Shown piece by piece: positions 1 to 28,607 of a DNA stretch of 32,000 nt. A program made the translations under genes and the position numbers. The stretch is from Wolbachia endosymbiont of Cimex lectularius. GTDB lineage: Bacteria > Pseudomonadota > Alphaproteobacteria > Rickettsiales > Anaplasmataceae. Where the stretch lies: assembly GCF_000829315.1 (NCBI RefSeq), contig NZ_AP013028.1, forward strand, positions 90,001-122,000, given 5' to 3'. How positions within the stretch are numbered: position 1 is the stretch's first letter; the number at the start of each line of letters is the position of its first letter. The notes beneath the pieces are model-generated. The model was not told the DNA's origin. It made no database searches and saw nothing but the letters and a program-made list of their open reading frames with translations.

Positions 1-159
1 AATGGTAGCTAAAAATTCAACGTCCTGAATTGTAGCTAAGCCAGTAAAGCCTAAAATATCATTTAAGAAATGAATAAGAATATCTTTATTCTTTTCAGTA
101 CCAAATATTCTTTTAAAGGCATAATCATTGCACGCGTCAAGAAATTTTGAAAAAGCCAT
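1..159 (-). CDS. Rpn-family (YhgA-like, PD-(D/E)XK) recombination-promoting nuclease / putative transposase; 5' end only, gene runs off the left edge
   Basis: A reverse-strand ATG at 159-157 opens a frame that stays open to position 1: MAFSKFLDACNDYAFKRIFGTEKNKDILIHFLNDILGFTGLATIQDVEFLATI. The AFKRIFG..NKDILI.FLN.IL N-terminus is typical of this family. It is absent from the ORF track because the window truncates it. Confidence 0.5.
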   Translation of the reverse strand, partial: MAFSKFLDACNDYAFKRIFGTEKNKDILIHFLNDILGFTGLATIQDVEFLATI

Positions 160-232: not shown

Positions 233-450
233 TTGGCCTACGAACCCAAGCCTCATCTTGAATTGCAATTATATTAAAAAATTTACCAAGCGAGAAAAAA
301 AGCAAAAGAAGCCCCGAGTGGCGAATTTTGAGTCAAAAATACTCTTGCTACCATAATAATGAAATTGTTGGAATTTGTCAAGTAGTTTTTTTTGTTTCTA
401 TTGGATAACGCTATGGCTTTTTTCCATTTTCGTCTGTCCGCTTTCTGTGT
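233..450 (-). repeat. Copy E (short form) of the modular P-box/T-box intergenic repeat
   Basis: Read on the - strand it has an upstream arm (..acagaaagcggacagacgaaaatggaaaaaagccatagcg.., matching 11880-11950), a P-box promoter, a ~60 nt body, the T-box cggggcttcttttgcttttttt and the tail ggtaaattttttaatat. Nucleotide matches to copies A-D are seen directly. Confidence 0.75.
353..381 (-). promoter_or_regulatory. P-box promoter of repeat copy E (TTGACA-17-TATTAT)
   Basis: On the - strand: aaaaaaaactacTTGACAaattccaacaatttcatTATTAT. The spacer was counted as 17 nt, and an A-tract lies upstream of the -35. Confidence 0.5.
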
Positions 451-6884: not shown

Positions 6885-7868
6885 ATGAAAGCGGAAAATT
6901 TCACTAAAGAACAGGTGATTGGATTCTACAGGAAAATGCTACTCATACGCAGATTTGAGGAAAAAGCAGGACAATTGTATGGAATGGGCTTAATAGGCGG
7001 ATTCTGTCACCTATCGATAGGACAAGAGGCAGTTGCAGTTGGAACGCAAGCTGCGTCAAAGTCCGGTGATGCTTTGATCACAAGTTATAGAGACCACGGT
7101 TTAATGCTGGCATGTGGCTCTGATCCAAACGTTGTGATGGCAGAACTGACCGGTAAAGAGACGGGATGCTCAAAAGGCAAAGGTGGTTCAATGCATATAT
7201 TTGATATTGAAAAAAAATTCTTCGGTGGACATGGAATAGTGGGTGCACAGGTTCCAATTGGCACAGGAATAGCATTTGCTAATAGATATAAGAAAAAAGA
7301 CAACGTGGTATTCACGTATTTTGGCGATGGTGCTGCAAACCAAGGGCAAGTGTATGAATCATTCAATATGGCAGCTTTATGGAAGTTACCTGTGGTTTAT
7401 ATTATAGAGAATAATGGATACGCAATGGGAACCTCCGTGCAAAGATCAACTTTAGTAACTGAGTTATATAGGAGAGGAGAGGGTTTTGGCATTCCTGGAA
7501 AGCAAGTTGATGGAATGGATTTTTTCTCTGTTTATGAGGAGGCAAGTGAGGCAGCTAAGTACGTGCGTAATGGAAAAGGGCCTATTCTGCTTGAAGTGAA
7601 GACATACCGATATCGCGGCCATTCGATGTCAGACCCTGCAACTTATCGTTCAAAAGAAGAAGTTGAAGATATGAAGCAAAACCATGATCCTATAAGCACT
7701 TTGAAGAAGTACATGGTAGATAATAAGATTGCTGCAGAGGAAGAATGCAAAGCAATTGACAAAGAAGTGCGCGATTTAGTGAAAAAATCAGAAGATTTTG
7801 CCAAAAAGAGTAAAGAACCAAGCGTTGATGAGCTGTATACTGATGTTTACAAATCTGTCAACCGTTAA
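6885..7868 (+). CDS. pdhA: Pyruvate dehydrogenase E1 component, alpha subunit
   Basis: It has YRDHG and the TPP-binding block FGDGAANQGQVYESFNMAALWKLPVVYIIENNGYAMGT. I prefer the ATG at 6885 (MKAENFTKEQ..) over the track start at 6798, which overlaps hemJ. Confidence 0.9.
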   Translation: MKAENFTKEQVIGFYRKMLLIRRFEEKAGQLYGMGLIGGFCHLSIGQEAVAVGTQAASKSGDALITSYRDHGLMLACGSDPNVVMAELTGKETGCSKGKGGSMHIFDIEKKFFGGHGIVGAQVPIGTGIAFANRYKKKDNVVFTYFGDGAANQGQVYESFNMAALWKLPVVYIIENNGYAMGTSVQRSTLVTELYRRGEGFGIPGKQVDGMDFFSVYEEASEAAKYVRNGKGPILLEVKTYRYRGHSMSDPATYRSKEEVEDMKQNHDPISTLKKYMVDNKIAAEEECKAIDKEVRDLVKKSEDFAKKSKEPSVDELYTDVYKSVNR

Positions 7869-7883
7869 CTGTAAAAAAACTAC

Positions 7884-7912
7884 TTGACAACCTTCGCCAG
7901 TCTCCTTACAAT
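7884..7912 (+). promoter_or_regulatory. P-box promoter A1 (TTGACA-17-TACAAT)
   Basis: aaaaaaactacTTGACAaccttcgccagtctcctTACAAT. The spacer was counted as 17 nt. It begins 10 nt after the pdhA stop. Confidence 0.5.
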
Positions 7913-8202
7913 AGAGTTGTAGGTGTTTTAGGCCTAAAATTTATCTTTAATCTTGTATTAAGTGACAAAAGCACAGTATAAAACAAGGCGTGTTATGTTT
8001 AATTTTTGCAGCATGGACACTGCATGTCTTTATAATTTTTTGTCTACATTAGCTGAGCCTCGCTTATTAAGCGGTGTAAGAGAGAATCGGACGCCAAGTT
8101 TTTGAGAGAACAGTAAACAACTCACATTACGGGGTTTCTTTTGTCTTTTTTTTAAATTAGTTAAAATTTTAACCAATCTAATTTTTTTCACAAAAAAATT
8201 GC

Positions 8203-8231
8203 TTGACAAGTTTTTACATTTCCCTTATCAT
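8203..8231 (+). promoter_or_regulatory. P-box promoter A2 (TTGACA-17-TATCAT)
   Basis: aaaaaaattgcTTGACAagtttttacatttcccTTATCAT. The spacer was counted as 17 nt. Confidence 0.45.
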
Positions 8232-8391
8232 AAAATTGTGGGTATTTACAACCCCAAGGTCAGCTACTTGTCAAGCGTATAGAGCATTAACGCCAAGTTA
8301 TTAAAATAGATGTTGACCGGGGCTTCTTTTGCTTTTTTTCTTATCTGGTAAATTTCTTAATATTTATTGCTAATTGTAATTCATGAATTGG

Positions 8392-8463
8392 GTAGGAGGG
8401 TGTCATGCCAGTGCTTGACACTGGCATCCGGGAATTTTACTAAGTTGGTGAGTATAAAAGTAT
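8392..8463. repeat. WPE-like palindromic element plus shared tail module
   Basis: The hairpin ATGCCAGTG-cttga-CACTGGCAT lies at 8405-8427. It is followed by tactaagttggtgagtataaaag, which recurs at 18890-18913. Confidence 0.7.
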
Positions 8464-8472
8464 CTGTTCAGC

Positions 8473-8633
8473 CAATGGCGTCAACTTAAGAAAAAATGTC
8501 AGTGATCGTGTATAAAATTTCTCTCTAAAATTTTTACCATTAAATTATCCACAAGCTGCAATAAGCAGCACTTTTGTTTCTATTTTATTCCAACAAAGAA
8601 GTTTACAAGGAGGCTCTTAAGTTGACGCCATTG
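8473..8633. repeat. Perfect 19-bp inverted repeat pair flanking a 123-bp AT-rich core (MITE-like or long hairpin)
   Basis: caatggcgtcaacttaaga (8473-8491) is the exact reverse complement of tcttaagttgacgccattg (8615-8633). The direct repeat cctgaatggatac follows at 8634-8646 and 8677-8689. Confidence 0.6.
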
Positions 8634-8710
8634 CCTGAATGGATACCCTCTTATCTATCGTTTCTTAAACTGCTCCCCTGAATGGATACTATCAGGCCAA
8701 TACCCCCAAC

Positions 8711-10138
8711 TTATAACTCAGTTCCGCCTACCGTAATTGCATCAACTTTGAGTGTTGGTTGACCAACTCCAACAGGCACGTTTTGTCCGTCTTTCGAACA
8801 TGTGCCAATACCGGGATCTAGCTTTAAGTCGTTGCCAACCATGGATACTTTTTTTAGTACTGTTGGCCCGTCACCAATTAACGTCGCTCCTTTGACTGGC
8901 TGAGTAACTTTGCCGTTTTCTATCAAATAAGCTTCTGAAGATGAGAAAACAAATTTTCCTGATGTTATATCAACCTGCCCACCACCAAAATTTACTGCAT
9001 ATAGACCTTTCTTCACGCTAGATATTATTTCTTCGGGTGTATGTTTTCCTGGCAACATATAGGTGTTTGTCATGCGCGGCATAGTAACTTCCTTATAACT
9101 TTCCCTTCTACCATTACCAGTTGGGTTTACCCCCATGAGTTTAGCATTCATATGATCCTGCATATATCCTTTGAGGATTCCATCTTCTATCAACACATTA
9201 TAACCAGAAGGAGTACCTTCATCATCTATGCTAATAGAACCACGCAAATTAGACAGAGTTCCATCATCAACTACTGTGATGCCACTAGCTGCTACTTGTT
9301 TACCAATAGAATTTGAAAATGCTGATACTCCTTTACGATTAAAATCGCCTTCGAGTCCATGACCTACAGCTTCGTGTAACAACACTCCTGGCCAGCCCGA
9401 ACCTAGAACAACTGTCATCTCTCCGGCCGGAGTTGGAACTGCTTCAAGATTTACTAATGCTTGTTCTAAAGCCTGGTTTGCAACTTCCTTCCACTTTTTC
9501 CCAGAAATAAACTTACTATAAGAATCCCGTCCACCGTGTCCTGCAGAACCTCTTTCGGTGCGACCATCTTTCTCTACGATAACCAGCACATTAAAACGTA
9601 CTAAAGGCCTAATATCGCTTAATCTGTGATCACCTTTTATTATTTGTACGACTTGCCATTCTCCACTTAGAGTTATTTTTACTTGCTTCACGCAGTTATT
9701 TTTGGATCTTACATACTCATTAACCTCGTTGAGCAGTTTAATTTTTGAGCTTAGATCTATTTCATTTATGGGGTTAGTTTTCGAATATAGGTTTTTTGTC
9801 TCTTTGCTTAAGCTTATTGAATTTGTTTTGTTCAAAGACACTGAGCTTTTAACTATAGAAGCAGCGTTACTAATTTCTTTTTCGCTAATCTCAGAAGAAC
9901 AAACAAAAGATGTGCTGTCCTCGCAAAAAGACCTCAGGCCAAATCCCCTTCTGGTATTCAAATCCATGTGTTTCAATATGTTATCATTGAAAACCAGAGA
10001 CTCTGACTGACAAAACTCTAAAAATAGCTCACCGCCATCGCTATTGCTCAAAGCATGGTTGACTATTTTATATACGTTATTAATATTAACATTGTTTTGA
10101 GCAAAAAATATTTGATCTAAGTTTAAATTGTCCGACAT
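8711..10138 (-). CDS. tldD: Metalloprotease TldD
   Basis: The 475-aa protein has the HEAVGHGLEGD zinc motif and the TldD/PmbA C-terminal G-rich blocks (GGGQVDITSGKFVF). Confidence 0.9.
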   Translation of the reverse strand: MSDNLNLDQIFFAQNNVNINNVYKIVNHALSNSDGGELFLEFCQSESLVFNDNILKHMDLNTRRGFGLRSFCEDSTSFVCSSEISEKEISNAASIVKSSVSLNKTNSISLSKETKNLYSKTNPINEIDLSSKIKLLNEVNEYVRSKNNCVKQVKITLSGEWQVVQIIKGDHRLSDIRPLVRFNVLVIVEKDGRTERGSAGHGGRDSYSKFISGKKWKEVANQALEQALVNLEAVPTPAGEMTVVLGSGWPGVLLHEAVGHGLEGDFNRKGVSAFSNSIGKQVAASGITVVDDGTLSNLRGSISIDDEGTPSGYNVLIEDGILKGYMQDHMNAKLMGVNPTGNGRRESYKEVTMPRMTNTYMLPGKHTPEEIISSVKKGLYAVNFGGGQVDITSGKFVFSSSEAYLIENGKVTQPVKGATLIGDGPTVLKKVSMVGNDLKLDPGIGTCSKDGQNVPVGVGQPTLKVDAITVGGTEL

Positions 10139-10200
10139 TACCTTTGAACTAAAAATTGCTCAAGTATATTATTTAACTTTAACATAGTAAACTACAAAAA

Positions 10201-10284
10201 GCCCGGGTGGCGGAATTGGTAGACGCGCTAGCTTCAGGTGCTAGTAACTTTTCAGTTGTGGAAGTTCAAGTCTTCTCTCGGGCA
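10201..10284 (+). tRNA. tRNA-Leu (anticodon CAG), class II with long variable arm
   Basis: Acceptor GCCCGGG/CTCGGGC, D-arm GCGGAATTGGTAGACGC, anticodon stem CTAGC/GCTAG with loop TTCAGGT, a long variable arm, and T-arm GGAAGTTCAAGTCTTCT are all present. No CCA is encoded. Confidence 0.9.
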
Positions 10285-10337
10285 CTCTTAACTTACATAT
10301 TGTTTTTTGAACGAATTAATGCTATAATGTATTAATT

Positions 10338-10835
10338 ATGCTTAAGTTTATGAGTCGTGAGAAAGAGGAACTTGCCAACAGGAAAAAAATAAGAACTTAC
10401 TCAAAACGTCTAGTTACCACGCTATCCATTGCTTCTTTTATTGGGTATATAGCATCACTAGTTTTTGATGTTCCTAGCTTAAATTTGCACTCTGCTGCTT
10501 TGAGTATTGTACTGAGTATAGTTTCACTCGGTTTGAATATGTGGTCATATATTGATTACTTTCGAAAACGCAATCTTAATAATCAGCTTGGCATAGAAAA
10601 CACTCCAGGACAAGAAAAGCTAACAGAGATCCATATTAATATTGCATCTAGCGCCTCATTTTTAATAGGGGGAATTATACCTGTATTACCTTTTGAATCT
10701 CCTATTATTCCTTTTGTTTCTATTACTTTTTCCATTTTGGGTTATGCTGCTATGGTAGCCAATATCGTCTGGACTATGATCAGCGAGCCAAAGGTAAAAG
10801 AATTGAGCAAAGGGGAAAATCTCCAAGTGGTGTGA
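10338..10835 (+). CDS. Hypothetical small membrane protein (about 4 TM segments)
   Basis: The 165-aa ORF has a basic N-terminus (RKKIRTYSKR) followed by hydrophobic helices. I recognise no family motif. An alternative start is M5. Confidence 0.45.
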   Translation: MLKFMSREKEELANRKKIRTYSKRLVTTLSIASFIGYIASLVFDVPSLNLHSAALSIVLSIVSLGLNMWSYIDYFRKRNLNNQLGIENTPGQEKLTEIHINIASSASFLIGGIIPVLPFESPIIPFVSITFSILGYAAMVANIVWTMISEPKVKELSKGENLQVV

Positions 10836-10877
10836 TAGCTGGAGCCTGATCACCAAAATACTAATAAATTAACTTGC

Positions 10878-10906
10878 TTGACTTATACAGGAATATCAGT
10901 TATCAT
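10878..10906 (+). promoter_or_regulatory. Candidate sigma70 promoter (TTGACT-17-TATCAT) upstream of the interrupted ORF at 10938
   Basis: cttgcTTGACTtatacaggaatatcagtTATCAT. The spacer was counted as 17 nt. It lies ~32 nt upstream of the ATG at 10938. Confidence 0.4.
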
Positions 10907-10937
10907 ATTAATAGTTTGATAACAAAAGGCGAATATT

Positions 10938-11318
10938 ATGACAGACTTTATAAATTTTTCCGATGACTATTCAGGATTTTTCTAGGATAATGCTTATTAT
11001 GTAGTATCTGAATATAATAATGATAGTCCAGATCTTAGCACATATATAGTAGAACGTGATGAACATGAGAACTTGGTATTTAAGAACCTATATGAATATA
11101 TATGTCCGGATGGGAACATACATAAAGGCATTGTCCTTGATCTCAGATCTTTACAGATAGAAGAAAGAATAGAGAACAGCAGCGGTTGTCATGTGAATAA
11201 TTATAGGGTAGATAATGGAACTTTGTCTTCAGATGGAAAAGAACTAATATTTAATATAACTCCAACCGAAGGGAACCATTCAAGAGAGTTCAACATAATT
11301 AGTATTACAAAAGTATAA
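10938..11318 (+). pseudogene. Hypothetical ORF interrupted by one in-frame TAG (codon 16); the track ORF 11073..11318 is its 3' part
   Basis: The ATG at 10938 gives MTDFINFSDDYSGFF, then TAG at 10983-10985. The same frame then continues open: DNAYYVVSEYNNDSPDLSTYIVERDEHENLVFKNLYEY...ITKV. Confidence 0.4.
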
Positions 11319-11333
11319 GCCACAACTGTAAGG

Positions 11334-11425
11334 ACATTGTGATTTGAGCCTGCCAGGAGGATGCATCCAAGTAGCCCCTTTTTTGTCATCCCAGTGCTCG
11401 ACACTGGGATCCAGGATACTACTTT
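11334..11425. repeat. Composite WPE-like palindromic element
   Basis: acattgtgatttgagc..tgcatccaagtagcc matches 18826-18868, and the hairpin ATCCCAGTG-ctcga-CACTGGGAT lies at 11388-11410. Confidence 0.7.
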
Positions 11426-11431
11426 GATAAT

Positions 11432-11955
11432 AAATATTTAAGAAATTTCCAAATGAGAAAAAAAGACAAAAGAAGCCCCATGGCGGCTAATTATTTGCTT
11501 TTGTGTCGAAATATCGGCGTTTTTTTTATTCTAAACGCTTGATGAATGCGACTTAGCTGCTTTTTAATGCAACTAACCTTAGCTGCAAACGTTTAAAAAA
11601 TTTACTAAACAGAAAAAACAGCAAAAGAAACCCCGGTAGCTAGTTATTTACTATCTATCCTATAATATTGGCGTTTTTTTATGTTTTAAACGACCTACAA
11701 GCGCGTTTGAGCTTGAAAACCAGAAGTTTTAAAAAGACGTGAGGTGCACATAGTGCAAAAAATTAAACATGGTACGCCAGATATACTAAGTTTTTTTGTC
11801 GTTTAATCTGCACAGACTGAAGATAAATAATAGCTCCAATACTATGATAAGGGTAACGGCAAAGATTGTCAAGTAGTTTTTTTCGTCTCTATCGTATGAC
11901 GTTATGACTTTTTTCCACTTTCATCTATCGGCTTTCTGTATAGTGGTTAGGTACG
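11432..11955 (-). repeat. Copy C of the modular P-box/T-box repeat (full length, two T-boxes)
   Basis: The reverse complement aligns along its length with copy B (16398-16815) and copy D. The T-boxes lie at 11591-11640 and 11432-11489 (+ coordinates). Confidence 0.8.
11844..11872 (-). promoter_or_regulatory. P-box promoter C (TTGACA-17-TATCAT)
   Basis: On the - strand: aaaaaaactacTTGACAatctttgccgttacccTTATCAT. The spacer was counted as 17 nt. Confidence 0.5.
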
Positions 11956-12147
11956 CGAGAAGCCTAATGTAGCTTCTTCTATTCTTGACTCGCTAAGCTT
12001 GTTCTGTTGTTCTAGCTCTTTTATAGCGTTAACAAGACTTAATTCCTTACCGCCAAGTTTGATTTTAACATCTGTGTTTTTCTCTAAGTCCTAATGATTT
12101 GGCTTACTTCCTACTATTTTAATATTGCCATTACTATCAGAGCTTTA

Positions 12148-13638
12148 TTAAAGTATAAACTTAGATAAATCCAACTGTATTGAAATCGATTCGAGCTTAT
12201 CTTTCACATACTTGCCATCTATAACAAATTTTTCACCATTCTTCTCAGTAGCAATAAAACTTATTTCATCTAAAAGTTTCTCCATGATAGTGTGGAGCCT
12301 TCTTGCACCTATATTTTCCACTTGCCTATTAACTGTAAACGCTATTTCAGCTATAGTTTCGATGCCATCATCGGTGAATTCAAGTATTACATTTTCTGTT
12401 TTCATTAAAGCTATGTACTGCTTCAATAAACTAGACTCAGGTTCCTTTAATATTCTTATTAAATCCTCTTGAGTAAGTGCCTTAAGCTCTACTCTAATAG
12501 GTAATCTACCCTGCAATTCTGGCAAAAGGTCAGACGGTTTAGATAAATGAAAAGCACCAGATGCAATAAATAATATATGGTCTGTCTTCACATGGCCATA
12601 CTTAGTTGAAACAGTTGTTCCTTCAAGCAGTGGTAATAAATCACGTTGTACTCCTTCTCTATTGATTTCACCTTTTACTTCTGTACGTGCTGCAATTTTA
12701 TCTATTTCATCCAAAAATACTATGCCTTCATTGCTAACAAGATCAATCGCTTCTTTGATTATCTTGTCTTCATCCATTAACTTCTCACTTTCTTCGTTAA
12801 TCAATATTTCTCGAGCTTCTTTTACCTTAACTGTAATAGTTTTTGTTTTTTTGCCCCCATTAAACATCTTGCCCACTAGTTCTGTGACGTTCACCACGCC
12901 AACTTGCCCACCTGGCATGCCTGGTATATCAAAAGCTGGTAGCATACTCTTACTTTCTCTGACGTTAATGGAAACTTCCCCATCTTCAAACTCTTTATTT
13001 CTCAGTTTTTCTCTGAAAACCCTTTTACTCTCTTCGGTTGCATCTTCACCAACCATAGAATTAACTATTATCCTCTCAACTAAATTCAAAGCTTTTTTAG
13101 CTAAAGCTTTGCGAGCTTTCTCTTTAACTAAAACTATTGCTGCATCAACTAAATCACGTATTATCGAGTCAACATCACGCCCGACATATCCTATTTCGGT
13201 GAATTTCGTTGCTTCAACTTTTATGAACGGCGCACCCGCAAGCTTCGCTAAGCGGCGAGCTATTTCTGTTTTACCAATCCCTGTATGACCAATCATCAGT
13301 ATATTTTTAGGTATAATTTCATCACGTAAAGGAAGAAAAACTTTATTGCGACGCCAACGGTTCCTGAGTGCAATAGCGACAGCACGTTTTGCATCATTCT
13401 GTCCAATTATGAACCTATCCAACTCCTTAACTATCTTTTGTGGCGGCAGATCGTCCAATAAGACTTGTGTACTGTTATTAATTTGGGCATTGTTGTTATT
13501 TGAATCACAGCCATTTTTAGTGTCTTCACAGAGGTCATTTTTCTCATTGTAGGTATCACTACCATAAAACTGCCCTTCTGAAAGCCTCACAAGCTGATTG
13601 GAGAAATTAGTGCATAAAATTTTTTGTTCAGAAGACAT
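12148..13638 (-). CDS. hslU: ATP-dependent protease ATPase subunit HslU (with ~60-codon N-terminal extension if the ATG at 13638 is used)
   Basis: It has [12 protein letters not shown], the Walker A motif [15 protein letters not shown], the Walker B motif VFLDEIDKI, and the C-terminal [13 protein letters not shown]. The ATG lies 1 nt after the hslV stop. An alternative TTG at 13458 would give an E. coli-like N-terminus. Confidence 0.9.
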
Positions 13639-13639
13639 A

Positions 13640-14194
13640 CTATCCCTCTATCTTTTCAATAACTACATTATGATTTGTATAAACACATATATCAGCTGCT
13701 ATTTTCATAGCTCTTTTCGCTATCTCCTCTATTGATATTCCTTTTACATCAATTAAAGCTCTTGCTGCGGATAGAGCAAAATTTCCTCCAGAACCAATAG
13801 CTGCGACCCCATCTTCAGGTTCAAGAACGTCACCTGTTCCTGTAATCACTAACGAAATAGATTTATCTGCAACAATCATCATAGCTTCCAATTTTCTCAA
13901 GTATTTATCCATTCTCCAATCTTTTGCAAGTTCAACACATGCTCTCATTAATTGTCCTGGGTGCCTATCAAGTTTAGATTCCAGTCTTTCAAAGAGAGTA
14001 AATGCATCGGCTGTTGCCCCTGCAAAACCAGCAATTACAGAATCACCAGAAAGGCGCCTGACTTTTTTTGCTCCGGATTTTATAACAGTGTGGCCCAGTG
14101 AAACCTGTCCATCACCTATTACTACTACACTTTTGTCTCTTCTAATTGACAGTATGGTAGTTCCATACATTTTACTGCTATCATGTTGAATCAT
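13640..14194 (-). CDS. hslV: ATP-dependent protease subunit HslV
   Basis: It has GTTILSIRR (catalytic Thr region), [14 protein letters not shown] and a short leader of the alphaproteobacterial type. Length is 184 aa. Confidence 0.92.
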
Positions 14195-14309
14195 TTTTCT
14201 ATCACTTCAAATGGCAATTTCATTATACTTTAATCTTTAATCAAATGTGCTAGATATGTTTAATTATAGCTCATAATATAATACTTTCCTTATAACATTA
14301 AAAGCGTAG

Positions 14310-15470
14310 ATGCAAAATATAATTCATCCAAAATTAAAAAAAAGTTTAAATAGTTGGTTTGAGGAGAAGTTTGATGGCCTCACATTGCCATTTTATAGCT
14401 CCATAGACCTAAGAAACTCTGGTTACAAAATTGCCCCTATAGACACTAATTTGTTTCCTGCAGGGTTCAACAACCTAAGTGAGGTATCAAAAGCAACAGC
14501 AGCAGAGCTAATGAAGAGCTACTTTAAAGAAAAACAACATAAAAAAATTCTCATAATACCGGAGAATTACACGCGAAATAAAATGTATATAGAGAACGTA
14601 TTTGCCATAGAAAAAATACTCCAACTCGCAGGTTTTGAGACTAGAATGGGCCTCTTTCACAACGAAGCATACAATTTAATAGAACCATATGAAACTGTCG
14701 TGAAGGAAAACTCCCTCCTGAAGACAACTTCAGGATTTGTGCCTGATGTTGTTGTACTGAACCGGGATATGACAAGCCACATTCCAGACACGCTGGAAAA
14801 TGTAAAACAAGAGATAGTGCCAAGTCCATTATATGGTTGGCACAGCAGGCAGAAATTTCAATATTTTGAAATCTATCAAAAACTAGCGTCCGAACTTTGT
14901 AGCGAATTTCAAATAGACCCGTGGCTTATTTCTACACCTACAGAAAGTTGCAGTAGTGTTAATTTCAATGACGATTCATCGCTAGAAATGGTGGCAGCTA
15001 AAGTTGATCAAGTGCTGTCCTTAGTGCAAAAAAAATATGAAGAATATAAAATAGAAACCCAACCTTATGTTTTCATCAAGGCAAGCAATGGAACATACGG
15101 AATGGGCATTATAACAGCAACAAGTGGAGAGGAAGTACTAAGCCTCAATAAAAAAAAGCGCAATAGAATGAAAAAGATAAAAGAAGGAATAGAAGTGAGC
15201 AGCGTTATTATACAAGAAGGTGTACCAACCATCGATGTATTTGAACATAGCCCTGCAGAGCCGCTGATATATTATATAGGAAGTACGCCAACCTGCTACT
15301 TATACCGGTGCAACAGTAGAAAAGATATATATTCTAGCTTAAATTCCACTGACTGTAAATTCCATGATGTCAGCCAGGCTGTGGAAAATAAAACTCTATC
15401 GCTTTGGAATATGGTTAGTAAATTAGCGGTGCTAGCATTGGCAGTAGAAATGAAGTCTTTTCATATCTAA
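14310..15470 (+). CDS. gshA: Probable glutamate--cysteine ligase (short proteobacterial GshA family)
   Basis: The N-terminal block PFYSSIDLRNSGYKIAPIDTNLFPAGFNNL matches my memory of the Acidithiobacillus-type GshA family. The protein is 386 aa. I cannot verify this without a search. Confidence 0.5.
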   Translation: MQNIIHPKLKKSLNSWFEEKFDGLTLPFYSSIDLRNSGYKIAPIDTNLFPAGFNNLSEVSKATAAELMKSYFKEKQHKKILIIPENYTRNKMYIENVFAIEKILQLAGFETRMGLFHNEAYNLIEPYETVVKENSLLKTTSGFVPDVVVLNRDMTSHIPDTLENVKQEIVPSPLYGWHSRQKFQYFEIYQKLASELCSEFQIDPWLISTPTESCSSVNFNDDSSLEMVAAKVDQVLSLVQKKYEEYKIETQPYVFIKASNGTYGMGIITATSGEEVLSLNKKKRNRMKKIKEGIEVSSVIIQEGVPTIDVFEHSPAEPLIYYIGSTPTCYLYRCNSRKDIYSSLNSTDCKFHDVSQAVENKTLSLWNMVSKLAVLALAVEMKSFHI

Positions 15471-15477
15471 TTTCTTA

Positions 15478-16337
15478 GAACCTGTTTAAAATCTTGGAAA
15501 TGTGAGGTAAAGTAAGCATAGATTAATAATGAGGTGTCTATGCAGAAAAGTTATCCAAGTAATATAAGTCAAGAGCAGTTTGAAAAAATCAGGCCAATTT
15601 TGGAGAGTGCAAGCAGAAAACAAAACCAAGAAAACTTGATTTGTATGACGTATTTTGTGGGGTGTTGTACGTCTTAAAAAGTGGTTGTCAGTGGAGGATG
15701 TTACCAAAGGGTTTTCCAAGATGGGAAAGCGTATATTACTATTTTCGAGTGTGGAGTAAAAAGAATGGAGAAGAGCCAAGCTTGTTGGAATTAGTCTTAA
15801 AAAAAATTAGTTGGAGAGGTCCGTATCAGCAATGGTCGGGAAGAGAAAACTAGCTTTTATATAATTGATTCTCAAAGCGTTAAAAACGCAGATACTGCTG
15901 AAAAAAAAAGGCTATGATGCAGGTAAAAAGATTTCAGGGATAAAGCGCCATATTGCAGTTGATACACAAGGTTTGCCACATGCAATTTATGTAACAACGG
16001 CAGAAGCAACTGACCGTAGCAGTGCTGTGAAAATGGTCGAAAATGCTAAAGCAAACCTCTCTGAAGTTAAAAACATACTGGTTGATGCTGGCTACACAGG
16101 AGAAAATTTTGCAACACAAATAAAAGCTATCATTGGTGCGACTGTTGAAGTAATAAAGCGAAGTGAGTTACACACTTTCGTCGTATTGCCAAAAAGATGG
16201 GTTGTTGAACGCTCTTTTGCCTGGTTAGAAAAGTGCAGGCGATTGTGGAAAAATTGCGAGCGGAAGCTCAACACTAGCTTACAGATGATAGTCCTCTCCT
16301 TCATTTCTCTCCTGTTACGAAGATTTTAAACAGGTTC
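15478..16337 (+). mobile_element. IS5-family insertion sequence (860 bp), decayed
   Basis: The terminal inverted repeats are perfect: (a)gaacctgtttaaaatctt at 15477-15495 and aagattttaaacaggttc(t) at 16320-16338. TTA flanks both sides, a candidate 3-bp target duplication. The interior encodes a DDE transposase in several frames. Confidence 0.85.
15540..16329 (+). pseudogene. IS5-family DDE transposase split into four frame segments
   Basis: MQKSYPSNISQEQFEKIRPILESASR | KTKPRKLDLYDVFCGVLYVLKSGCQWRMLP...LVLKK | LVGEVRISNGREEKTSFYIIDSQSVKNADTAEKK | GYDAGKKISGIKRHIAVD...VDAGYTG...VVERSFAWLEKCRRL. The frame changes fall at A-runs 15617-15620, 15799-15806 and 15901-15909. Confidence 0.8.
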
Positions 16338-16397
16338 TTACTTCTAAGCGTAGCCATTGGCTAGACTTCTTGCATAAAAAACAGCTTTTGGCATATG

Positions 16398-16815
16398 CGA
16401 AAAAACTACTTGACAATCTTTGCCGTTACCCTTATAATGACACTGAAGCTATTTGTTTAACTTCCCAATCTGTACAGGTTAAAATGACAAGAAAACTTGT
16501 ATTTGGCGTACTATTGTTTAATTTTTCGCACTATGTGCACTGCATGTCTTTTTAAAACTTCGGGTTTTTGCCCATACAAGCTGAAACGCGCTTATAAGTC
16601 GTTTAAGACATCACTTAACGCCGGATTTTAAAATAGAGAGTGGAATAACTAGCTACCTCGGGGTTTTATTGTCTTTTTTCCCTGTTTGGTAAATTTCTTA
16701 AATATTATAGCTTAGACTAGTTGCGTTTAAAAGCAGCTAAATTGCAGCGTTTAAGGCATAAAAACGCCAATACTAAAAATAAATACCGACCAGGGCTTCT
16801 TTTGTCTTTTTTTCT
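16398..16815 (+). repeat. Copy B of the modular P-box/T-box repeat (full length, two T-boxes)
   Basis: It starts at aaaaaactacttgacaa. T-box 1 lies at 16659-16705 and T-box 2 at 16791-16813. It aligns with the reverse complements of copies C and D. The track ORF 16370..16555 lies inside it. Confidence 0.8.
16410..16438 (+). promoter_or_regulatory. P-box promoter B (perfect consensus TTGACA-17-TATAAT)
   Basis: aaaaaactacTTGACAatctttgccgttacccttTATAAT. The spacer was counted as 17 nt. Confidence 0.55.
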
Positions 16816-16827
16816 GCTTAGTTTAGG

Positions 16828-17304
16828 TTATGCAAAAAGTTTTCTGTCTGATTCATGATGATGATTAACATCACGAAGTTCAGTAGAAGGATCATCATTG
16901 ATTGGTTGATTAAACAGTTTGTCAAGCTGGACTGCTAGGAATACTGCGCTATATATTATGCTGACTGTTACGCTTAAATTAAAATTATAGATTATACCAT
17001 TACCTAAGTTTATCGGTATGGTTGCAATTTCTACCCTTCTTAATACGAAGTTTAACAAACCTAATGACAAAGTTAGTGTGCTGATGAAGAGGCTCTTCTT
17101 GCGTTTAGCAAGCTCAGCTTTACATTTTGTAAATTCATCAGTTTCCTTTTTATCTTGGTATTTTCCACATGCATCTTGATATTCTTTATGTGCCTTTTGA
17201 TATTTTTTGTATGTATAATAATAGCTTATGGGTTCTGAAATGAATAGGAATAGGATTGTTGACGTTAAGTGAACACAACTTATTACGTCTGCATTTCTAG
17301 TCAA
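16828..17304 (-). CDS. Hypothetical membrane protein (TTG start overlapping the upstream stop)
   Basis: The 158-aa ORF has hydrophobic segments, a Lys/Tyr/Gln-rich linker (YKKYQKAHKEYQDACGKYQDKK) and a C-terminal HHHESD. Its only possible start is the TTG at 17304, inside tcTTGActag. Confidence 0.4.
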   Translation of the reverse strand: MTRNADVISCVHLTSTILFLFISEPISYYYTYKKYQKAHKEYQDACGKYQDKKETDEFTKCKAELAKRKKSLFISTLTLSLGLLNFVLRRVEIATIPINLGNGIIYNFNLSVTVSIIYSAVFLAVQLDKLFNQPINDDPSTELRDVNHHHESDRKLFA

Positions 17305-17678
17305 GAGATGGATGACTTCAACATCATTAGCGCTTCTATGGTGCTGCTTGCAAGACTAGCTGACTTGCCCACAATTTTTGCTAATTCTTTTTTACCCTTG
17401 GGGTCTCTGTAATCCTTGACTAGGTCATATAAAGTAAATGCAGAGTAGGCAATATATAGAATAGACGTCGGAAATTTTGCCCACCGAGCGACATTCCGTA
17501 TAAGAAAAATATTGGATCTGTTATTGTCAATAAACTCACAGCAAAATTGTAGCGAAATCTTGCACAGTAGCATTGTTAAACCTGTTGTAATACAGATTAT
17601 CCTCCTGATATCATGGTCGTAAGTGTCATGTACCTTTTGTGCAAACGTGTTTTGTTTCTTTTTTAGTTTATTTGACAT
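17301..17678 (-). CDS. Hypothetical small membrane protein
   Basis: The 125-aa ORF has a basic N-terminus and two hydrophobic segments. Its stop TGA (17303-17301) overlaps the TTG of the next ORF. Confidence 0.4.
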   Translation of the reverse strand: MSNKLKKKQNTFAQKVHDTYDHDIRRIICITTGLTMLLCKISLQFCCEFIDNNRSNIFLIRNVARWAKFPTSILYIAYSAFTLYDLVKDYRDPKGKKELAKIVGKSASLASSTIEALMMLKSSIS

Positions 17679-17755: not shown

Positions 17756-18769
17756 TTAAAGATAATTTATGCACAAATTTACCAAGCATTTTATAAACAA
17801 GAAATCAGTACCGAGAGTTGGTATGCGAAAGTAATGTTCGTCCTTGATCATTGCTTTATATTCTATATCAAGCTCAACAAGCGTCTCTGAATGTTCAGAA
17901 ACAAAAGATATAGGTGATAAAACCACAGGTACACCATCAGCTTTTGCACGCAACAGTTCACTTTCGGTGCTTGGCTCTAACCATTTTATAGGTCCAATCT
18001 TGCTCTGATAACATATTACCCAATCAAGATCTTTAATATCTAATTTTTTTACTATCAATTTTACTGTTTCTTCTATCTGTGAAGCGTAAGGGTCGCCTTT
18101 TTTAACAACACTTAGAGGCAAGCTATGGGCTGAAAATAGGATTCTTGGTTTACCAATTTTGCTGGCTAATTTATAATACTGAGCTGCTAGGTTAGCGTGA
18201 GCTTTAATAAACTCTTGGTTATCATAATAGCGGTTGATTATTTTTGTGTTGCATTTGAGACCATATTTTTTGGCATTTTTTTGCCAATTTTCGATAGATG
18301 ACAGAGTTGTGGTAGTTGAATACTGAGGATATAGCGGCAGCAGAATTGCTTCGTCAGGATCAAACTGCTTCACACTCTTAACAACTTCATCAGCAAATGG
18401 ATGCCAATAGCGCATACAAATGAATACTCTGGCCAGCTCTGGTGTCATTCCAGCGTGTGACCAGTTCTTTTTTCTAGATCCCAGTTCCACGCTACTTGGA
18501 TGACAAAAGACGGATCTATTAAGTTCTTGCTCAAGCGCTTCAGCTTGCATTTTTGTATTCTCTAAAATTGGTGATTTGCCTCCAATTTGCTCATATATTT
18601 TTCGTGCAGTATTTTCTCGTTTTGCGGATATAAACTTTGCTAAAAGAAAACGAAAAGGGTTTGGTAGATTTATTATTCTTCTGTCGTAAAAGAGATTGAA
18701 TAGAAAAGGACGGACCGCATTTGGTGAATCAGGGCCGCCTAGGTTAAGTAAGATAATTGCTTTTTTCAT
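17756..18769 (-). CDS. hemH: Ferrochelatase (carries an in-frame palindromic-element insertion)
   Basis: It has [37 protein letters not shown] and [13 protein letters not shown]. Length is 337 aa. Confidence 0.9.
18441..18504. repeat. WPE-like element inside the hemH reading frame
   Basis: ggtgtcattccagcgtgtgac...agatcccagttccacgctacttggatgac matches intergenic copies at the nucleotide level (for example 19014-19045 and 18851-18880). It is translated as ..[23 protein letters not shown].. Confidence 0.65.
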
Positions 18770-18825: not shown

Positions 18826-19202
18826 AACATTGTGATTTGAGCACCGAGATGGTGTCATCCAAGTAGCCTGGCACTGGGATCCAGGATTCTACTAAGTTGG
18901 TAAGTATAAAAGCGTTATGTGAAAACAACGTACTCGATGAAATTGTGTGAAAGTGCTGGCCAAGCATTTTAGTGTACGAGCATTGCAATTTGCAGATAAT
19001 TTGAGTAGTAGGTGGTGTCATTCCAGCGCGTGACGCTGGAATCCAGCTTTTTAGTAACTTCACCAAAAATGTTGTATAGTGCACGATCAATTTCGCTGGA
19101 TCCCAGTGTCAAGCACTGGGATGACCCCTTTGTGTTTAAGGTAAAAATGGCTAACACACTGCTCCCGCGTTCGTACCGCTGTGTGTCAAGCGCTGGGATA
19201 AC
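18826..19202. repeat. Cluster of at least four WPE-like palindromic elements filling the hemH-upstream intergenic region
   Basis: The hairpins are ATTCCAGCG-cgtga-CGCTGGAAT (19020-19042) and ATCCCAGTG-tcaag-CACTGGGAT (19100-19122). Half elements lie at 18851-18880 and 19183-19202, and the tail module at 18890-18913. Confidence 0.75.
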
Positions 19203-25092: not shown

Positions 25093-26015
25093 TGCTGGTT
25101 AAAAATAGATTTACTGTAAAACATCCTATCATCCCAGAACACCCTTTTGTTATCCAAGTAGCTGACACTGGGATCCAGAAAAAAAACAAATGGATTTCAG
25201 CATCACGTGCCAAAGTGACATCAGGCTATTTTTTACTAAAACAATGGCTAGTTAAGGGACTGAACGTATTTGCAATTTTTTGCATGTTATTCCTATCTGG
25301 TCCTACATCTGCAGAAGAATTTACACCATCACCAAATAAAAAAATGGACTGGAATTTTGATGGAATTACCGGGTCTTTTGATAGGGAATCAATTCAGCGG
25401 GGTTATAAAGTATATAAGGAAGTTTGTGCTGCTTGCCATTCAATGAATAGAGTGGCATTTCGTAATTTGCAAGGTATCGGTTTTTCTGAAGAGGATGTGA
25501 AACAGATTGCAGCTTCTTATCAAGTTAAAGATGGTCCGAACGATTTAGGTGAAATGTTCGATAGACCGGGAATACCTTCGGATTATTTTATCGCACCTTT
25601 TGATTCGAAAGAAGCAGCCACAGCAAGTAATAATGGTGCAGTTCCACCGGACTTGTCACTAATTATTAAAGCGAGGCACGACGGTGCAAATTATGTCTAT
25701 TCACTGCTAACAGGTTATCAAGACGATGAGCACGATGAAAATGATTTATATTTTAATCCGTATTTTCCAACAGGTAAGTTAGCTATGGCACCACCACTTT
25801 CTGAAGGAATGCTGGAGTATAACGGTACAAGGCAGGCTACAGTTGAAAACATGGCATATGATGTGGTGAATTTTTTACAATGGGCAGCAGAGCCAGAACT
25901 AGAGCACCGGCACAAGCTTGGATTTAAAGTAGTAGCATATTTTGTAATTTTAACAGTGTTTTTTGTGTTAACTAACAATAAAATTTGGAGCAAGCTCTAT
26001 AAAAAGAAAAGATAA
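25092..26015 (+). CDS. petC: Cytochrome c1 (start uncertain: ATG 25092 includes a palindromic element; GTG 25215 would exclude it)
   Basis: It has the haem-binding motif CAACHS, PPDLSLI and a C-terminal TM anchor. The ATG overlaps the petB TAA by 1 nt. Confidence 0.85.
   Translation: MLVKNRFTVKHPIIPEHPFVIQVADTGIQKKNKWISASRAKVTSGYFLLKQWLVKGLNVFAIFCMLFLSGPTSAEEFTPSPNKKMDWNFDGITGSFDRESIQRGYKVYKEVCAACHSMNRVAFRNLQGIGFSEEDVKQIAASYQVKDGPNDLGEMFDRPGIPSDYFIAPFDSKEAATASNNGAVPPDLSLIIKARHDGANYVYSLLTGYQDDEHDENDLYFNPYFPTGKLAMAPPLSEGMLEYNGTRQATVENMAYDVVNFLQWAAEPELEHRHKLGFKVVAYFVILTVFFVLTNNKIWSKLYKKKR
25127..25220. repeat. WPE-like element at the petB/petC junction (in frame with the long petC ORF)
   Basis: tcatcccagaac..ttatccaagtagctgacactgggatccagaaaaaaaacaaatggatttcagcatcacgtgccaaagtgaca matches other copies (18851-18880, 30113-30184). 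It is translated as ..IIPEHPFVIQVADTGIQKKNKWISASRAKV.. Confidence 0.65.
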
Positions 26016-26093: not shown

Positions 26094-28043
26094 ATGGAAT
26101 TTCAAATCGTTACACATTTTAAACCAGCCGGAGATCAGTCACAAGCAATCGATAGCTTAGTTGCAGGGCTAAACAGCAACAAAAAAGATCAGGTTTTGCT
26201 TGGAGTTACCGGCTCTGGAAAAACTTTCACTATGGCAAATGTTATTGCAAGAACAAACAGGCCTGCATTAATTATGGCGCACAACAAAACTTTAGCAGCG
26301 CAGCTTTATGAGGAAATGAGAGGATTTTTTCCCCATAATGCTGTTGGATACTTCATTTCTTATTATGATTACTATCAGCCCGAGGCTTATTCGCCACAAA
26401 CTGATACTTATATTGAAAAGGACTCCGTAATTAACGAAAGAATTGACATGCTGCGTTATTCTGCTGTTTGTTCTCTCTTGGAACGCAGGGACACAATTGT
26501 AGTTGCCAGTGTTTCCTGCATATATGGTCTTGGTTCGCCCGAGAGCTATCTCAGCATGATCTTGACTTTAAGTACTGGAGATAAAATTCGTGTTAATGAT
26601 TTCCTGAATAATTTAGCTAATCTCCAGTACAAGCGCTCTGATGTCAGATTTGAAAGAGGATATTTCAGAGTACGCGGCGATATTATCGACATATTTCCTG
26701 CCTACTATGAAAACAAAGCTTGGCGTTTATCGCTAATGGGCGATGAAATAGAAGAAATTTCTGAGATTGATGCTATGACCGGCAATATCATCAAGCGCAT
26801 AGATAAAATCACCATTTTTCCAAACAGCTATCACATTACCTCACGTGAGACTCTATTGCAGGCGGTTCAGCTGATCAAAAAAGAGCTGCATGAACGCTTA
26901 GATTATTACTATTCACAGAACAAAATTGTTGAAGCAAAACGCCTTGAGCAGCGCACCAATTTTGATATTGAAATGATGATAGCAACAGGAGTGTGTAAAG
27001 GTATCGAAAATTATTCGCGTTATCTCTACGGCATGGAAGCTGGAGATGCACCGCCTACTTTGTTTGAATATTTACCTAAAGATGTAATTTTATTTGTCGA
27101 CGAGAGTCATGTTACCGTTCCTCAGGTTGGTGCGATGTATAGCGGTAATGAGGCGCGTAAAAAAAAATTGGTGGACCACGGATTTAGGCTCCCTTCTGCT
27201 TTTGATAACCGTCCATTAAAATTTGAAGAGTGGGAAGCAGTGCGGCCGCAAACTATTTTCATTTCCGCTACTCCCGGAAAATATGAGTTGGCAAAAACCA
27301 ATAATGTATTCATAGAGCAAGTTATTCGTCCAACGGGTCTTACAGATCCAATCTGCATTATAAAGCCAACAGAGACTCAAGTTGATGATGTGATTCATGA
27401 AGCGCAAGTGACGATAAAGAAAGGGTTTTGTGTTCTTATTACCACATTGACAAAAAAAATGGCTGAAAAGCTAGCCGAACATATAAGTGAGCTAAATATG
27501 AAGGTGAGTTACCTGCATTCAGATATTGGTGCACTGGAGAGGATTGACATTATATGCAAACTAAGATCGAAAGAAATCGACGTCCTAGTTGGTGTCAACT
27601 TACTGCGGGAAGGTCTTGATATTCCAGAATGTGGATTGGTTGCAATTTTGGACGCTGATAAGGAAGGATTTTTGCGATCGGAAACTTCGCTCATTCAAAC
27701 AATAGGTCGTGCTGCACGCAATGCCGAAGGTAGGGTAGTTTTATATGCAGATAAAATGACCGGTTCTTTAGACCGTGCGTTGAAAGAAACAGAAAGAAGA
27801 AGAAAGAAACAACAAGAATACAATATACTGCATAATATTACACCAAAAACTATAGTAAAGGCTATATCAAATACTCTACAAGATAATGTAGCAGCCGAGA
27901 GAAAAGTCGATATTAGTAAGGACGATTTAGTCAATTTAGAAAAGCAGATGTTAAAACATGCTGAGAATCTAGAGTTTGAAGACGCAGCAAAAATAAAACG
28001 TATTATCGAAAGATTCGGCAGACTTCCTGCAAACCAAAACTAA
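26094..28043 (+). CDS. uvrB: Excinuclease ABC subunit B
   Basis: It has [13 protein letters not shown], the beta-hairpin region [16 protein letters not shown], helicase motifs ([18 protein letters not shown]) and a C-terminal UVR motif ([10 protein letters not shown]). Length is 649 aa. Confidence 0.95.
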
Positions 28044-28146
28044 GCAGAAAGAAAGCAATTTACTAGCTACGCCATGCCGCCGCAGGTCTCACGTGGCTTC
28101 CGCTTGCAACTAATCTTTAACTATAAACATTAAAAAATTCACTAAA

Positions 28147-28180
28147 TAAAAAAAGACAAAAGAAGCCACGGTCGGTGGCT
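28147..28180 (-). terminator. Canonical intrinsic-terminator shape within T-box D2
   Basis: On the - strand, AGCCAC-cgacc-GTGGCT (a perfect 6-bp stem) is followed by TCTTTTGTCTTTTTTTA. Confidence 0.5.
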
Positions 28181-28531
28181 AATTATTTATATGTACCTCA
28201 AATATCGGCGTTTTTATTCTCAGCGCTACGATTCAGCTACTTTTAAATGCAAGTAATCAAAACTGTAAACATTAAGAAATTTACTAAGCAGGAAAAAAAG
28301 AAAAAAAAACTCTGAGGCAGCTAGTATTCAAATTCTCCCTTGTCTATTTGACGTTCTATACTGTCTTAAACGACTTATAAGCGCGCTTCAGCTTGTATAG
28401 GTAAAAACCAGAAGTTTTAAAAGACGTGAGGTGCACATAGTGCAAAAATTTAAACATGAGACGCCAAATACCCTAAGTTTTTTGTCATTAACCGGCACAG
28501 ATTGCGAAGATAAATAAATAGCTTCAGTATC

Positions 28532-28560
28532 ATTATAAGGGGGTTGGAGGAACTTGTTAA
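28532..28560 (-). promoter_or_regulatory. P-box promoter D (TTAACA-17-TATAAT)
   Basis: On the - strand: aaaaaaaactacTTAACAagttcctccaacccccTTATAAT. The spacer was counted as 17 nt. The -35 has one mismatch. Confidence 0.45.
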
Positions 28561-28607
28561 GTAGTTTTTTTTGTTTCTATTGCTAAAAAATCTGAATTCA
28601 GTCTACC

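Follow-up and report, generated by a model that had tools for sequence, protein, structure and literature searches.

The 32,000-nucleotide window analysed here, positions 90,001 to 122,000 of contig NZ_AP013028.1, comes from the Wolbachia endosymbiont of Cimex lectularius, strain wCle of supergroup F; the HslU protein encoded in the window is identical to BAO99407.1 of this strain. At five intergenic loci it carries a repeat that opens with a promoter-like block, the P-box, and closes with a polypyrimidine block, the T-box. We conclude, with a probability of about 0.68, that these loci are copies of one dispersed, Wolbachia-specific, transcribed mosaic repeat resembling a miniature inverted-repeat transposable element (MITE), a selfish sequence with incidental effects on its neighbours. 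Judged by sequence homology, the repeat is the supergroup F counterpart of ARM, the 'A-supergroup repeat motif' of strain wMel. The original prediction, made from the letters of the window, had offered two readings of the promoter-plus-terminator-like cassette, either a small-RNA gene family or a non-autonomous mobile element carrying its own promoter. The second fits best, given terminal inverted repeats (TIRs) with an outer TA, an insertion that is absent from five supergroups, deletion derivatives and a pair of filled and empty sites, and the first finds neither a conserved structure nor covariation in its favour.

All five loci were recovered where they had been predicted, by repeat finding, alignment, pattern searches and a profile alike. 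The P-box pattern, AAAAAAYTRCTTRACAA-N15-TTAYNAT, has six exact matches in the window, at 353-391 (-), 7874-7912 (+), 8193-8231 (+), 11844-11882 (-), 16400-16438 (+) and 28532-28570 (-), against 0.00 expected from shuffles, and the T-box pattern, GGGGYTTCTTTTGYYTTTTTT, has seven matches with at most one mismatch, against 0.02 expected. These six P-boxes and seven T-boxes are confined to the five loci, which amount to six units in 32 kb, and a profile hidden Markov model (HMM) built from 42 copies in other Wolbachia matches the five loci and none besides. The window P-boxes contain the sigma-70 hexamers (-35 and -10) at 17-nt spacing, and between 7000 and 17500 the four P-boxes are the top four sigma-70 matches, at 12/12 or 11/12 positions with a 17-nt spacer. 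The basic unit of about 302 nt consists of an A-tract with the near-consensus sigma-70 P-box, a non-coding body of about 215 nt, the pyrimidine T-box and then GGTAAATTTCTTAA. P-box and T-box are the best conserved blocks among copies, and in the Wolbachia-type loci the spacing is regular, with T-box 1 255-265 nt past the start of the P-box and T-box 2 131-135 nt beyond it.

A tandem duplication of the last ~125 nt of the unit is common among copies. Copies B, C and D had been said to align end to end, as both alignment and profile confirm, and since their second halves match profile positions ~176-302 once more, these halves are tandem duplicates of the 3' part of the unit. Copy A had been described as sharing the ends and several internal blocks; its layout is that of two units, A1 and A2, in tandem. 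Nor are A2 and copy E the minimal units they were taken for, as nhmmer places A2 at HMM positions 1-56 and 191-301 and copy E at 1-60 and 246-301, so that both are derivatives formed by internal deletion.

Copy B, on the plus strand, displays the complete architecture. From TIR to TIR it spans 482 nt, 16362-16843 (TIR matches; nhmmer 16400-16703 and 16737-16825), and the limits first given to it, 16398-16815, were too short. The left TIR, TAGACTTCTTGCATAA, lies at 16362-16377 (+), with a TIR match at 16362-16378 that has 1 mismatch (paired TIR matches against 0.12 expected), followed by the P-box at 16400-16438 (+), in which the A-tract precedes a -35 TTGACA at 16410-16415, the 17-nt spacer and a -10 TATAAT at 16433-16438, for a sigma-70 score of 12/12. 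The predicted transcription start is the G of GAAGCTATT at 16445 (+), where nucleotide 1 of a wMel product from 5' rapid amplification of cDNA ends (5'-RACE), that of intergenic region IGR-1047, aligns; the geometry is the same in wMel Cappable-seq. A degenerate T-box 1, CGGGGTTTTATTGTCTTTTTTC, occupies 16659-16680 (+), with GGTAAATTTCTTAA after it at 16688-16701. Module 2, the tandem duplicate of the unit's 3' ~125 nt, runs from 16702 to 16815 (+; HMM positions 181-292 at 16737-16825) and ends in T-box 2 at 16792-16815. The right TIR, AAAACTTTTTGCATAAC on the minus strand, closes the element at 16827-16843 (-) with 3 mismatches.

In wMel, ARM was described as an intergenic repeat of 440 bp that is present in 24 near-identical copies, is linked to the VNTR-105 (variable number tandem repeat) locus and serves as a sensitive target for PCR (Schneider, Klasson, Lind & Miller 2014, PMC4029913); the VNTR-105/141 loci of Wolbachia are the subject of Riegler et al. 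2012 (PMC3287509). The ARM paper describes no promoter, transcript, inverted repeats, modules or mobility, and it reported the motif to be specific to supergroup A, with 0 megablast matches in supergroups B, C and D (PMC4029913). The connection to the window runs through primer ARM-F, TTCGCCAATCTGCAGATTAAA (PMC4029913), which is found exactly inside the wMel IGR-1047 5'-RACE product (PMC4349823 S1 File), at +18 to +38 of the RACE-defined transcript. That product aligns with copies B, C and D at 70-71% over 267-299 nt, and with copy B from 16445 at 70% over 299 nt. The original prediction had not recognised the repeat as a named family; by way of this primer and this product the name is ARM. 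Further, the IGR-1021 product aligns to copy D from 28525 at 81% over 181 nt, the regions around the wMel transcription starts match C, D and B at 78-84% over ~150 nt, and the ARM type locus, WD1129-WD1131, is the region IG-921 of Woolfit et al., the primer for which contains a T-box.

Beyond this homology, ARM and the wCle repeat are alike in being multicopy, intergenic and non-coding, in size (~440 bp as against 420-480 bp here) and in often having hairpin-type palindromic repeats after them. They differ in range, which was published as supergroup A and which here includes supergroup F (wCle, wMoz, wPaur, wTis and termite-type metagenome-assembled genomes, MAGs) and supergroup T, at 70-87% identity. 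Regions around hslU from supergroups A, B, C, E and T (L124-L128) served for the comparison across supergroups. In the supergroup A locus (L124) there are two full copies that match B, C and D at 73-79% identity over 422-476 nt and carry an ARM-F-like site; the locus of 'Ca. W. massiliensis' (supergroup T, L128) has three, one of them 87% identical to A1, and the 21-kb hslU-region samples from supergroups B, C and E contain no copies. By these alignments the restriction of ARM to supergroup A is contradicted and the homology is unaffected. A scan for the P-box in one genome per species returned at least 120 loci, with 69 of Wolbachia type among the matches listed (wMoz, wTis, wPaur and three 'Rickettsiales' MAGs; ~95 P-boxes). 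The non-Wolbachia matches listed (~40%) are ordinary strong Firmicutes promoters with no further similarity. Many MAG contigs stop 100-180 nt into an element, the signature of a high-copy repeat that breaks assemblies, and three draft assemblies with the window's exact pdhA also break inside copy A.

Evidence for transcription comes from two published wMel data sets. Woolfit et al. 2015 chose intergenic regions (IGs) by high RNA-seq coverage (PMC4349823). Family motifs are present in their primers for IG-151, -392, -446, -921, -1035, -1047 and -1049, as well as in the RACE inserts IG-1021 and IG-1047, whose 5' ends start GAAGCTATT and GAAGGCATT (PMC4349823). A Cappable-seq study (2025) lists the flanking sequence of each primary start (PMC12558409), and four of these, 131390 (-), 388537 (-), 713865 (+) and 1067756 (+), have CTTGACA-N17-TATCAT upstream (PMC12558409 Table S1). 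They begin at or beside the G of GAAGCTATT, with 40-201 counts per million (cpm), and some are temperature-responsive; in that study, starts of the family appear among the orphan or internal ones. The wMel starts from both methods lie 7 nt after the -10 box of the homologous copies and project by alignment onto 16445 in copy B and 28525 in copy D, and there is no antisense start in the conserved core in the wMel Cappable-seq data (PMC12558409). Because of these mapped starts the P-box is a working promoter in wMel, which bears out the promoter half of the predicted cassette, and homology suggests that the P-boxes of wCle are active as well. The transcript crosses T-box 1 in wMel, since the IG-1047 cDNA was primed in module 2, and the IGR-1021 transcript extends to the downstream coding sequence (CDS); its 3' end was scored by the authors as outside the intergenic region (PMC4349823).

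Neither study recognised a repeat family; most such regions were dropped for 'repetitive sequence', and the small RNAs (sRNAs) named are other loci, ncrwmel01 and ncrwmel02 (PMC4349823, PMC12558409). We considered ncrwmel02 as a family member and rejected it, its amplicon sequence being unrelated. In the supergroup B strain wAlbB, the highly expressed orphan start oTSS_+_402708 (758 cpm) has a P-box-like promoter, AAAAAAATACTTGACA-N17-TATTAT (PMC12558409 Table S2); by eye its 5' end resembles the E-like subtype, and BLAST gives no significant match to the copies compared. A solo P-box on the minus strand of one locus, L014 (at 1579 of the reverse complement), is preceded by module U2 and has no family body after it. 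A gene for a leucine-rich-repeat (LRR) protein follows ~400 nt downstream, and the P-box may represent promoter co-option.

The ends of the element point to mobility. Many P-boxes are preceded by TAGACTTCTTGCATAA, with one of several alternative modules in between, and many last T-boxes are followed by TCTGCTTAGTTTAGG-TTATGCAAGAAGTCTA, the exact reverse complement of the left repeat. Allowing at most 3 mismatches, the inverted repeat is found in the sense orientation within 170 nt upstream of 13 of 91 P-boxes and in the antisense orientation at 0; its reverse complement occurs within 180 nt downstream of 11 of 46 last T-boxes, with 0 in sense, and the background is 0.007 per 170 nt. Across loci 24 of the 44 inverted-repeat matches are situated at element ends, in the inward-facing orientation only, and the dinucleotide outside GAC... 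is TA in 16 of 20 ends. Copy B keeps both inverted repeats; those of copies C and D are degenerate.

The site of copy B can be compared among supergroups. In A, B, C, E and T (L124-L128) the gshA stop abuts or overlaps a convergent gene; in wCle an insertion sequence (IS) and copy B are found at this place, and wPaur has an A1+A2-type element between the same flanks. At the gshA site the flanking sequences are too diverged for a target-site duplication to be read. The IS, of the IS5 family (15477-16338, +, between gshA and copy B), has 45-nt imperfect inverted ends, a DDE_Tnp_1 domain and an apparent TTA duplication, and is a later insertion outside the repeat family; the related wPaur locus (L081) is without it. 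As for the convergent gene, it is a single open reading frame (ORF) of 197-280 aa in the five supergroups and is split in wCle into two overlapping ORFs of 158 aa and 125 aa, 16828-17304 and 17301-17678 (-), which suggests a frameshift or a pseudogene.

A filled site is provided by wFol (supergroup E; L127 20602-20743), in which a 141-nt element with the same inverted repeats and without the P-box/T-box cassette follows fumC. The MAG Spi319 (L104, near nt 355-362) has the empty site GGTGAATT-TA-TAAATC, and the filled one reads GAATA-TA-CCTCTTGCATAA...TTATGCAAGAGG-TA-TAATTT, consistent with TA duplication for this 141-nt relative only. The wFol element may be the backbone MITE behind the repeat-bounded forms of ARM. 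A second candidate pair (L051 and L104) was discarded, as the matching flank is the end of an IS. Gene ends are also involved. The wFol fumC gains the tail IPLA* from the TAA of the repeat, and in the window the convergent ORF 16828-17304 stops at the TAA that copy B carries in its right inverted repeat. For uvrB (3' end at 28019-28043, +) the last ~8 codons and the stop apparently derive from the degenerate right end of copy D, the TIR GGTTTGCAGGAAGTCTG (28035-28019, -) overlapping the last uvrB codons; here the TAA of the repeat is mutated and translation continues to the next TAA, in CTTAG, within the terminal sequence of the element.

Copies are also mosaic. Alignments of the window with wTis, wPaur and Spi319 traverse pdhA, hslU or uvrB and end exactly at the P-box, beyond which there is either the body of another subtype or a wholly different flank; copies therefore recombine with each other, and the P-boxes mark rearrangement breakpoints, which implies that the repeat mediates rearrangements. 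Synteny with the window breaks at L013:3102, L087:2243-2260, L085:6606-6641 and L105:1620-1644. The junction of pdhA with A1 is also present in wPaur (L085) and Spi319 (L105), with a different body type, the A1+A2 tandem is also present in L081, L079 and L113, and the orthologue of copy D is in wTis (L013).

The remaining copies can now be placed. A1 (7874-8174, +) is a full unit without a left TIR that begins 5 nt past the pdhA stop, with its P-box at 7874-7912 and T-box at 8131-8151, and the internally deleted A2 (8193-8364, +) has a P-box at 8193-8231, a T-box at 8319-8339 and GGTAAATTTCTTAATATT at 8347-8364, with tldD as the other neighbour of copy A. Copy C (11432-11966, -), with hslU upstream, consists of a degenerate left TIR, TAGGCTTCTCGCGTAC, at 11966-11951, module U2, a P-box at 11882-11844 and T-boxes at 11634-11614 and 11479-11459. 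Copy D (28019-28570, -), whose neighbours are a dapE-like M20 peptidase gene and uvrB, has a P-box at 28570-28532 (-35 TTAACA), a degenerate T-box 1 at ~28313-28290, T-box 2 at 28169-28149 and a partial third module. Copy E (271-452, -), with a ccdA/DsbD-type gene upstream, comprises module U2, a P-box at 391-353, a 37-nt remnant of the body, a T-box at 315-295 and GGTAAATTTTTTAATAT. Upstream of copy B are gshA and the IS5-type insertion sequence. At four of the five loci the copy sits between convergent genes, aimed at the 3' end of the next gene. Co-orientation with the upstream gene, seen in 6/6 cases in the window, was rejected as a rule, as 52 copies have the same and 35 the opposite orientation across 92 copies.

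In contrast to its promoter, the predicted terminator of the cassette did not hold up. When 58-nt segments reaching 8 nt into each of 69 distinct T-boxes were folded, they did no better than shuffled sequences (mean z +0.5), with a clear hairpin of 5-6 bp, GCCAC-CGACC-GTGGC, only at T-box 2 of copy D, and a promoter/terminator scan of 7000-17500 located no terminator at the T-boxes. Together with the read-through of T-box 1 in wMel, these results led us to reject the T-box as an intrinsic (Rho-independent) terminator at which transcripts would end. RNAalifold, applied to 36 copies from the start site to T-box 1, gave 3 invariant pairs at -1.33 kcal/mol and no conserved structure, and a home-made covariation scan of all column pairs in these copies produced only 4-5-bp A-U/G-U stacks, with no helix longer than 5 bp. 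The small hairpins TGCAC/GTGCA and TGCAG/CTGCA, which had been put forward as weak evidence for paired change, are alternative hairpins and not compensatory, because the 3' arm of A1, CTGCA, also occurs in copy B. No Rfam family matches the repeat at the gathering threshold, the best sub-threshold match being InvR with E = 0.15; otherwise Rfam identifies in the window WsnRNA46, away from the copies, and one tRNA.

At the protein level the claim that the small internal ORF is not conserved was confirmed, with the frame broken in most subtypes. In most copies it ends after 13 codons at TCTTTTTAA; copy D owes its longer frame solely to the loss of 1 nt, the A1 type uses a different frame, and the ATG is missing from one wMel copy. 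A conserved micro-ORF MFNFLHYVH..., possibly a type I toxin, was for this reason rejected, 12 near-identical intact copies being uninformative. Between copy D and its wTis orthologue (L013) the body is 87.6% and module 2 73% identical, to be compared with 87.4% at the third codon positions of uvrB, which suggests that change in the orthologous copy is roughly neutral, at about the synonymous rate.

Several observations weigh against a MITE-like origin of the family. Neither ~0.6 Mb of Wolbachia loci nor IMG/VR yielded a transposase gene flanked by the inverted repeats of the family; in IMG/VR a search with the inverted repeat for an autonomous partner gave 16 single matches, none with family sequence. 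A recognisable inverted repeat is kept at only ~15-25% of element ends and is missing from the two supergroup A copies examined; because few ends and neither of these two copies carry them, the repeats could belong to a separate, often associated backbone element. The sole clean pair of filled and empty sites concerns the short relative without the P-box/T-box cassette, and the TA could belong to the inverted repeat as its last two bases instead of being a duplicated target. Between supergroups, non-orthologous copies are 73-79% (A) and 87% (T) identical, as against 67-75% at third codon positions, and such high similarity can mean constraint as well as recent spread. Finally, the transcription data come from wMel and are applied to wCle by homology.

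Part of this evidence bears on an interpretation that we think unlikely, namely that the copies are selected, multi-copy genes for trans-acting small RNAs of ~240-370 nt that work on mRNAs or proteins, for example through pairing of the pyrimidine T-box with purine-rich ribosome-binding regions, and that the inverted repeats are incidental. Such genes would explain why a near-consensus promoter is kept in at least 35 of the 41 copies anchored independently by the conserved core, as well as the level and partial temperature response of the wMel starts, the similarity across supergroups above that of synonymous sites and the strong conservation of P-box and T-box. They sit badly, however, with the lack of a consensus structure, compensatory pairs or an Rfam match, with an orthologous copy diverging at about the synonymous rate, with bodies that are freely exchanged, deleted and duplicated, and with a 3' end that has no terminator and a T-box 1 that is read through in wMel. 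One can go further and suppose that ARM RNAs form a conserved multi-copy regulatory system in at least supergroups A, F and T, kept by selection, in which the invariant T-box CUUCUUUUGYCUUUUUUU is a shared seed or protein-binding site and the products of dozens of strong promoters jointly titrate a common target, the inverted repeats being relics of the first spread. The target would be ribosome-binding regions, protein S1, another RNA-binding protein or a host factor; we regard this proposal as quite improbable.

Improbable too, in our estimate, is a role as domesticated, cis-acting intergenic punctuation that insulates or regulates neighbouring genes by antisense transcription into convergent genes, downstream promoters, T-tract pause sites or bent A/T-tract DNA. 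The position of four of the five window loci between convergent genes, the entry of the wMel IGR-1021 transcript into the downstream CDS, the solo P-box ~400 nt upstream of the LRR-protein gene in L014 and the repeat-borne stops of ORF 16828-17304 and uvrB all agree with it, but a selfish element would be just as likely to cause such effects incidentally, orientation follows no rule (52 same, 35 opposite), sites are not conserved among supergroups and terminator hairpins are lacking. It is highly improbable that the copies are remnants of a known insertion sequence, of prophage WO or of a decayed gene, or that they are alike by chance. IS elements do often adjoin copies, and one weak match (79% over 97 nt) is to a record that bears the label Wolbachia phage WO; in that record, however, it falls between two chromosomal genes, ruvA and rnhB, and not among phage genes, and there are no plasmid matches, which led us to reject a prophage or plasmid origin. 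Nor is there family sequence in IMG/VR contigs or a conserved frame, and the pattern counts are far above chance. An origin from IS, prophage or gene fragments, the objection anticipated in the original prediction, is already largely ruled out.

On the preferred reading of a transcribed, MITE-like mosaic repeat, the P-box would fire 7 nt after the -10 box, as it does in wMel and by homology would do in wCle, to give a non-coding RNA that passes T-box 1 and, in wMel and presumably here, sometimes runs into the neighbouring gene. Copies would have inserted into intergenic DNA and at gene 3' ends, with the TAA of the repeat as a new stop, and would be absent from the same sites in other supergroups, both in partial agreement with the sites compared above. 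They would spread in MITE fashion by means of a TA-targeting transposase supplied in trans, a mechanism that we infer, since no transposase bounded by these repeats was found. Copies decay by internal deletion and swap segments among themselves, as the deletion derivatives and exchanged bodies show, so that one and the same site can hold different bodies in different strains and synteny is interrupted at P-boxes. The element would mainly be selfish or neutral DNA. As side effects, transcription from its promoter would run antisense into convergent genes, and the promoter would occasionally serve a gene; the RNA is probably not a selected, structured trans-acting regulator.

An architectural parallel exists with the Correia repeat-enclosed elements (CREE) of Neisseria, which are short and non-autonomous, have terminal inverted repeats, TA ends and functional promoters, occupy intergenic and gene-end sites and affect neighbouring transcripts. 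The likeness is one of architecture only, the sequences being evidently different. In Correia elements the promoters are part of the terminal repeats and face outward, and the transcript is a long hairpin cleaved by RNase III, whereas the promoter of the wCle repeat is internal and directed inward through a body of ~300 nt that forms no long hairpin. The bacterial interspersed mosaic elements (BIMEs) of E. coli, the Neisseria intergenic mosaic elements (NIMEs) and the Rickettsia palindromic elements (RPEs) are based on palindromes (the REP, RS and RPE hairpins) and have no consensus promoter. With BIMEs and NIMEs the repeat shares the property of a modular intergenic repeat assembled from alternative blocks. 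RPEs insert in frame within genes; what they have in common with the wCle repeat is that it sometimes extends or replaces gene ends in a reduced Rickettsiales genome.

WsnRNA46 (Rfam RF02625), with a 101-bit match at 18998-19145 (-), is the other named Wolbachia non-coding repeat in the window and is unrelated in sequence; it represents the palindromic repeats GTCATCCCAGTG...CACTGGGATGAC, which are frequently found beside ARM copies and lie outside the P-box/T-box unit. A second palindromic family, GTCATCCCAGTGCTTGACACTGGGATGAC, is present at 8398-8431, 11381-11414, 18465-18508, 18844-18884, 19013-19046, 19097-19128, 25145-25225 and 30103-30190; in many cases such palindromes come immediately after an ARM copy, as with C and A2 in the window, and they are similar to the hairpin units of the wMel VNTRs. 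Between copy A and tldD lies an element of ~187 nt, 8460-8646, with 32-nt inverted repeats that are 91% complementary, GTATCTGTTCAGCCAATGGCGTCAACTTAAGA / TCTTAAGTTGACGCCATTGCCTGAATGGATAC, and a similar end, CCTGAATGGATAC, is found after a copy in L106. Window positions 1-159 (-) hold the start of an ORF, MAFSKFLDACNDYAFKRIFG..., about 110 nt downstream of copy E; its N-terminus is reminiscent of the Rpn/PD-(D/E)XK putative-transposase family. A link between the repeat family and an Rpn-type gene by way of copy E was rejected, as no similar ORF lies beside any other copy.

The repeat itself is mostly already known, as the ARM marker, and in itself it reveals no new mechanism. New here are the occurrence of the repeat in supergroups F and T, a connection of ARM with published transcription starts, the architecture of units and deletions, the inverted-repeat ends and the association with breakpoints. 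ARM has so far been an anonymous PCR target for supergroup A, its transcribed wMel regions having been set aside as 'repetitive'; three published data sets and the present window together describe it as a ~300-nt unit with a validated consensus promoter and inverted-repeat ends, located at rearrangement breakpoints. Many of the orphan starts and candidate sRNAs in Wolbachia transcriptomes may be borne by repeats and hidden by filters for unique mapping. ARM PCR is not a clean test for supergroup A, and the P-box offers a compact, native and strong promoter for work on Wolbachia.

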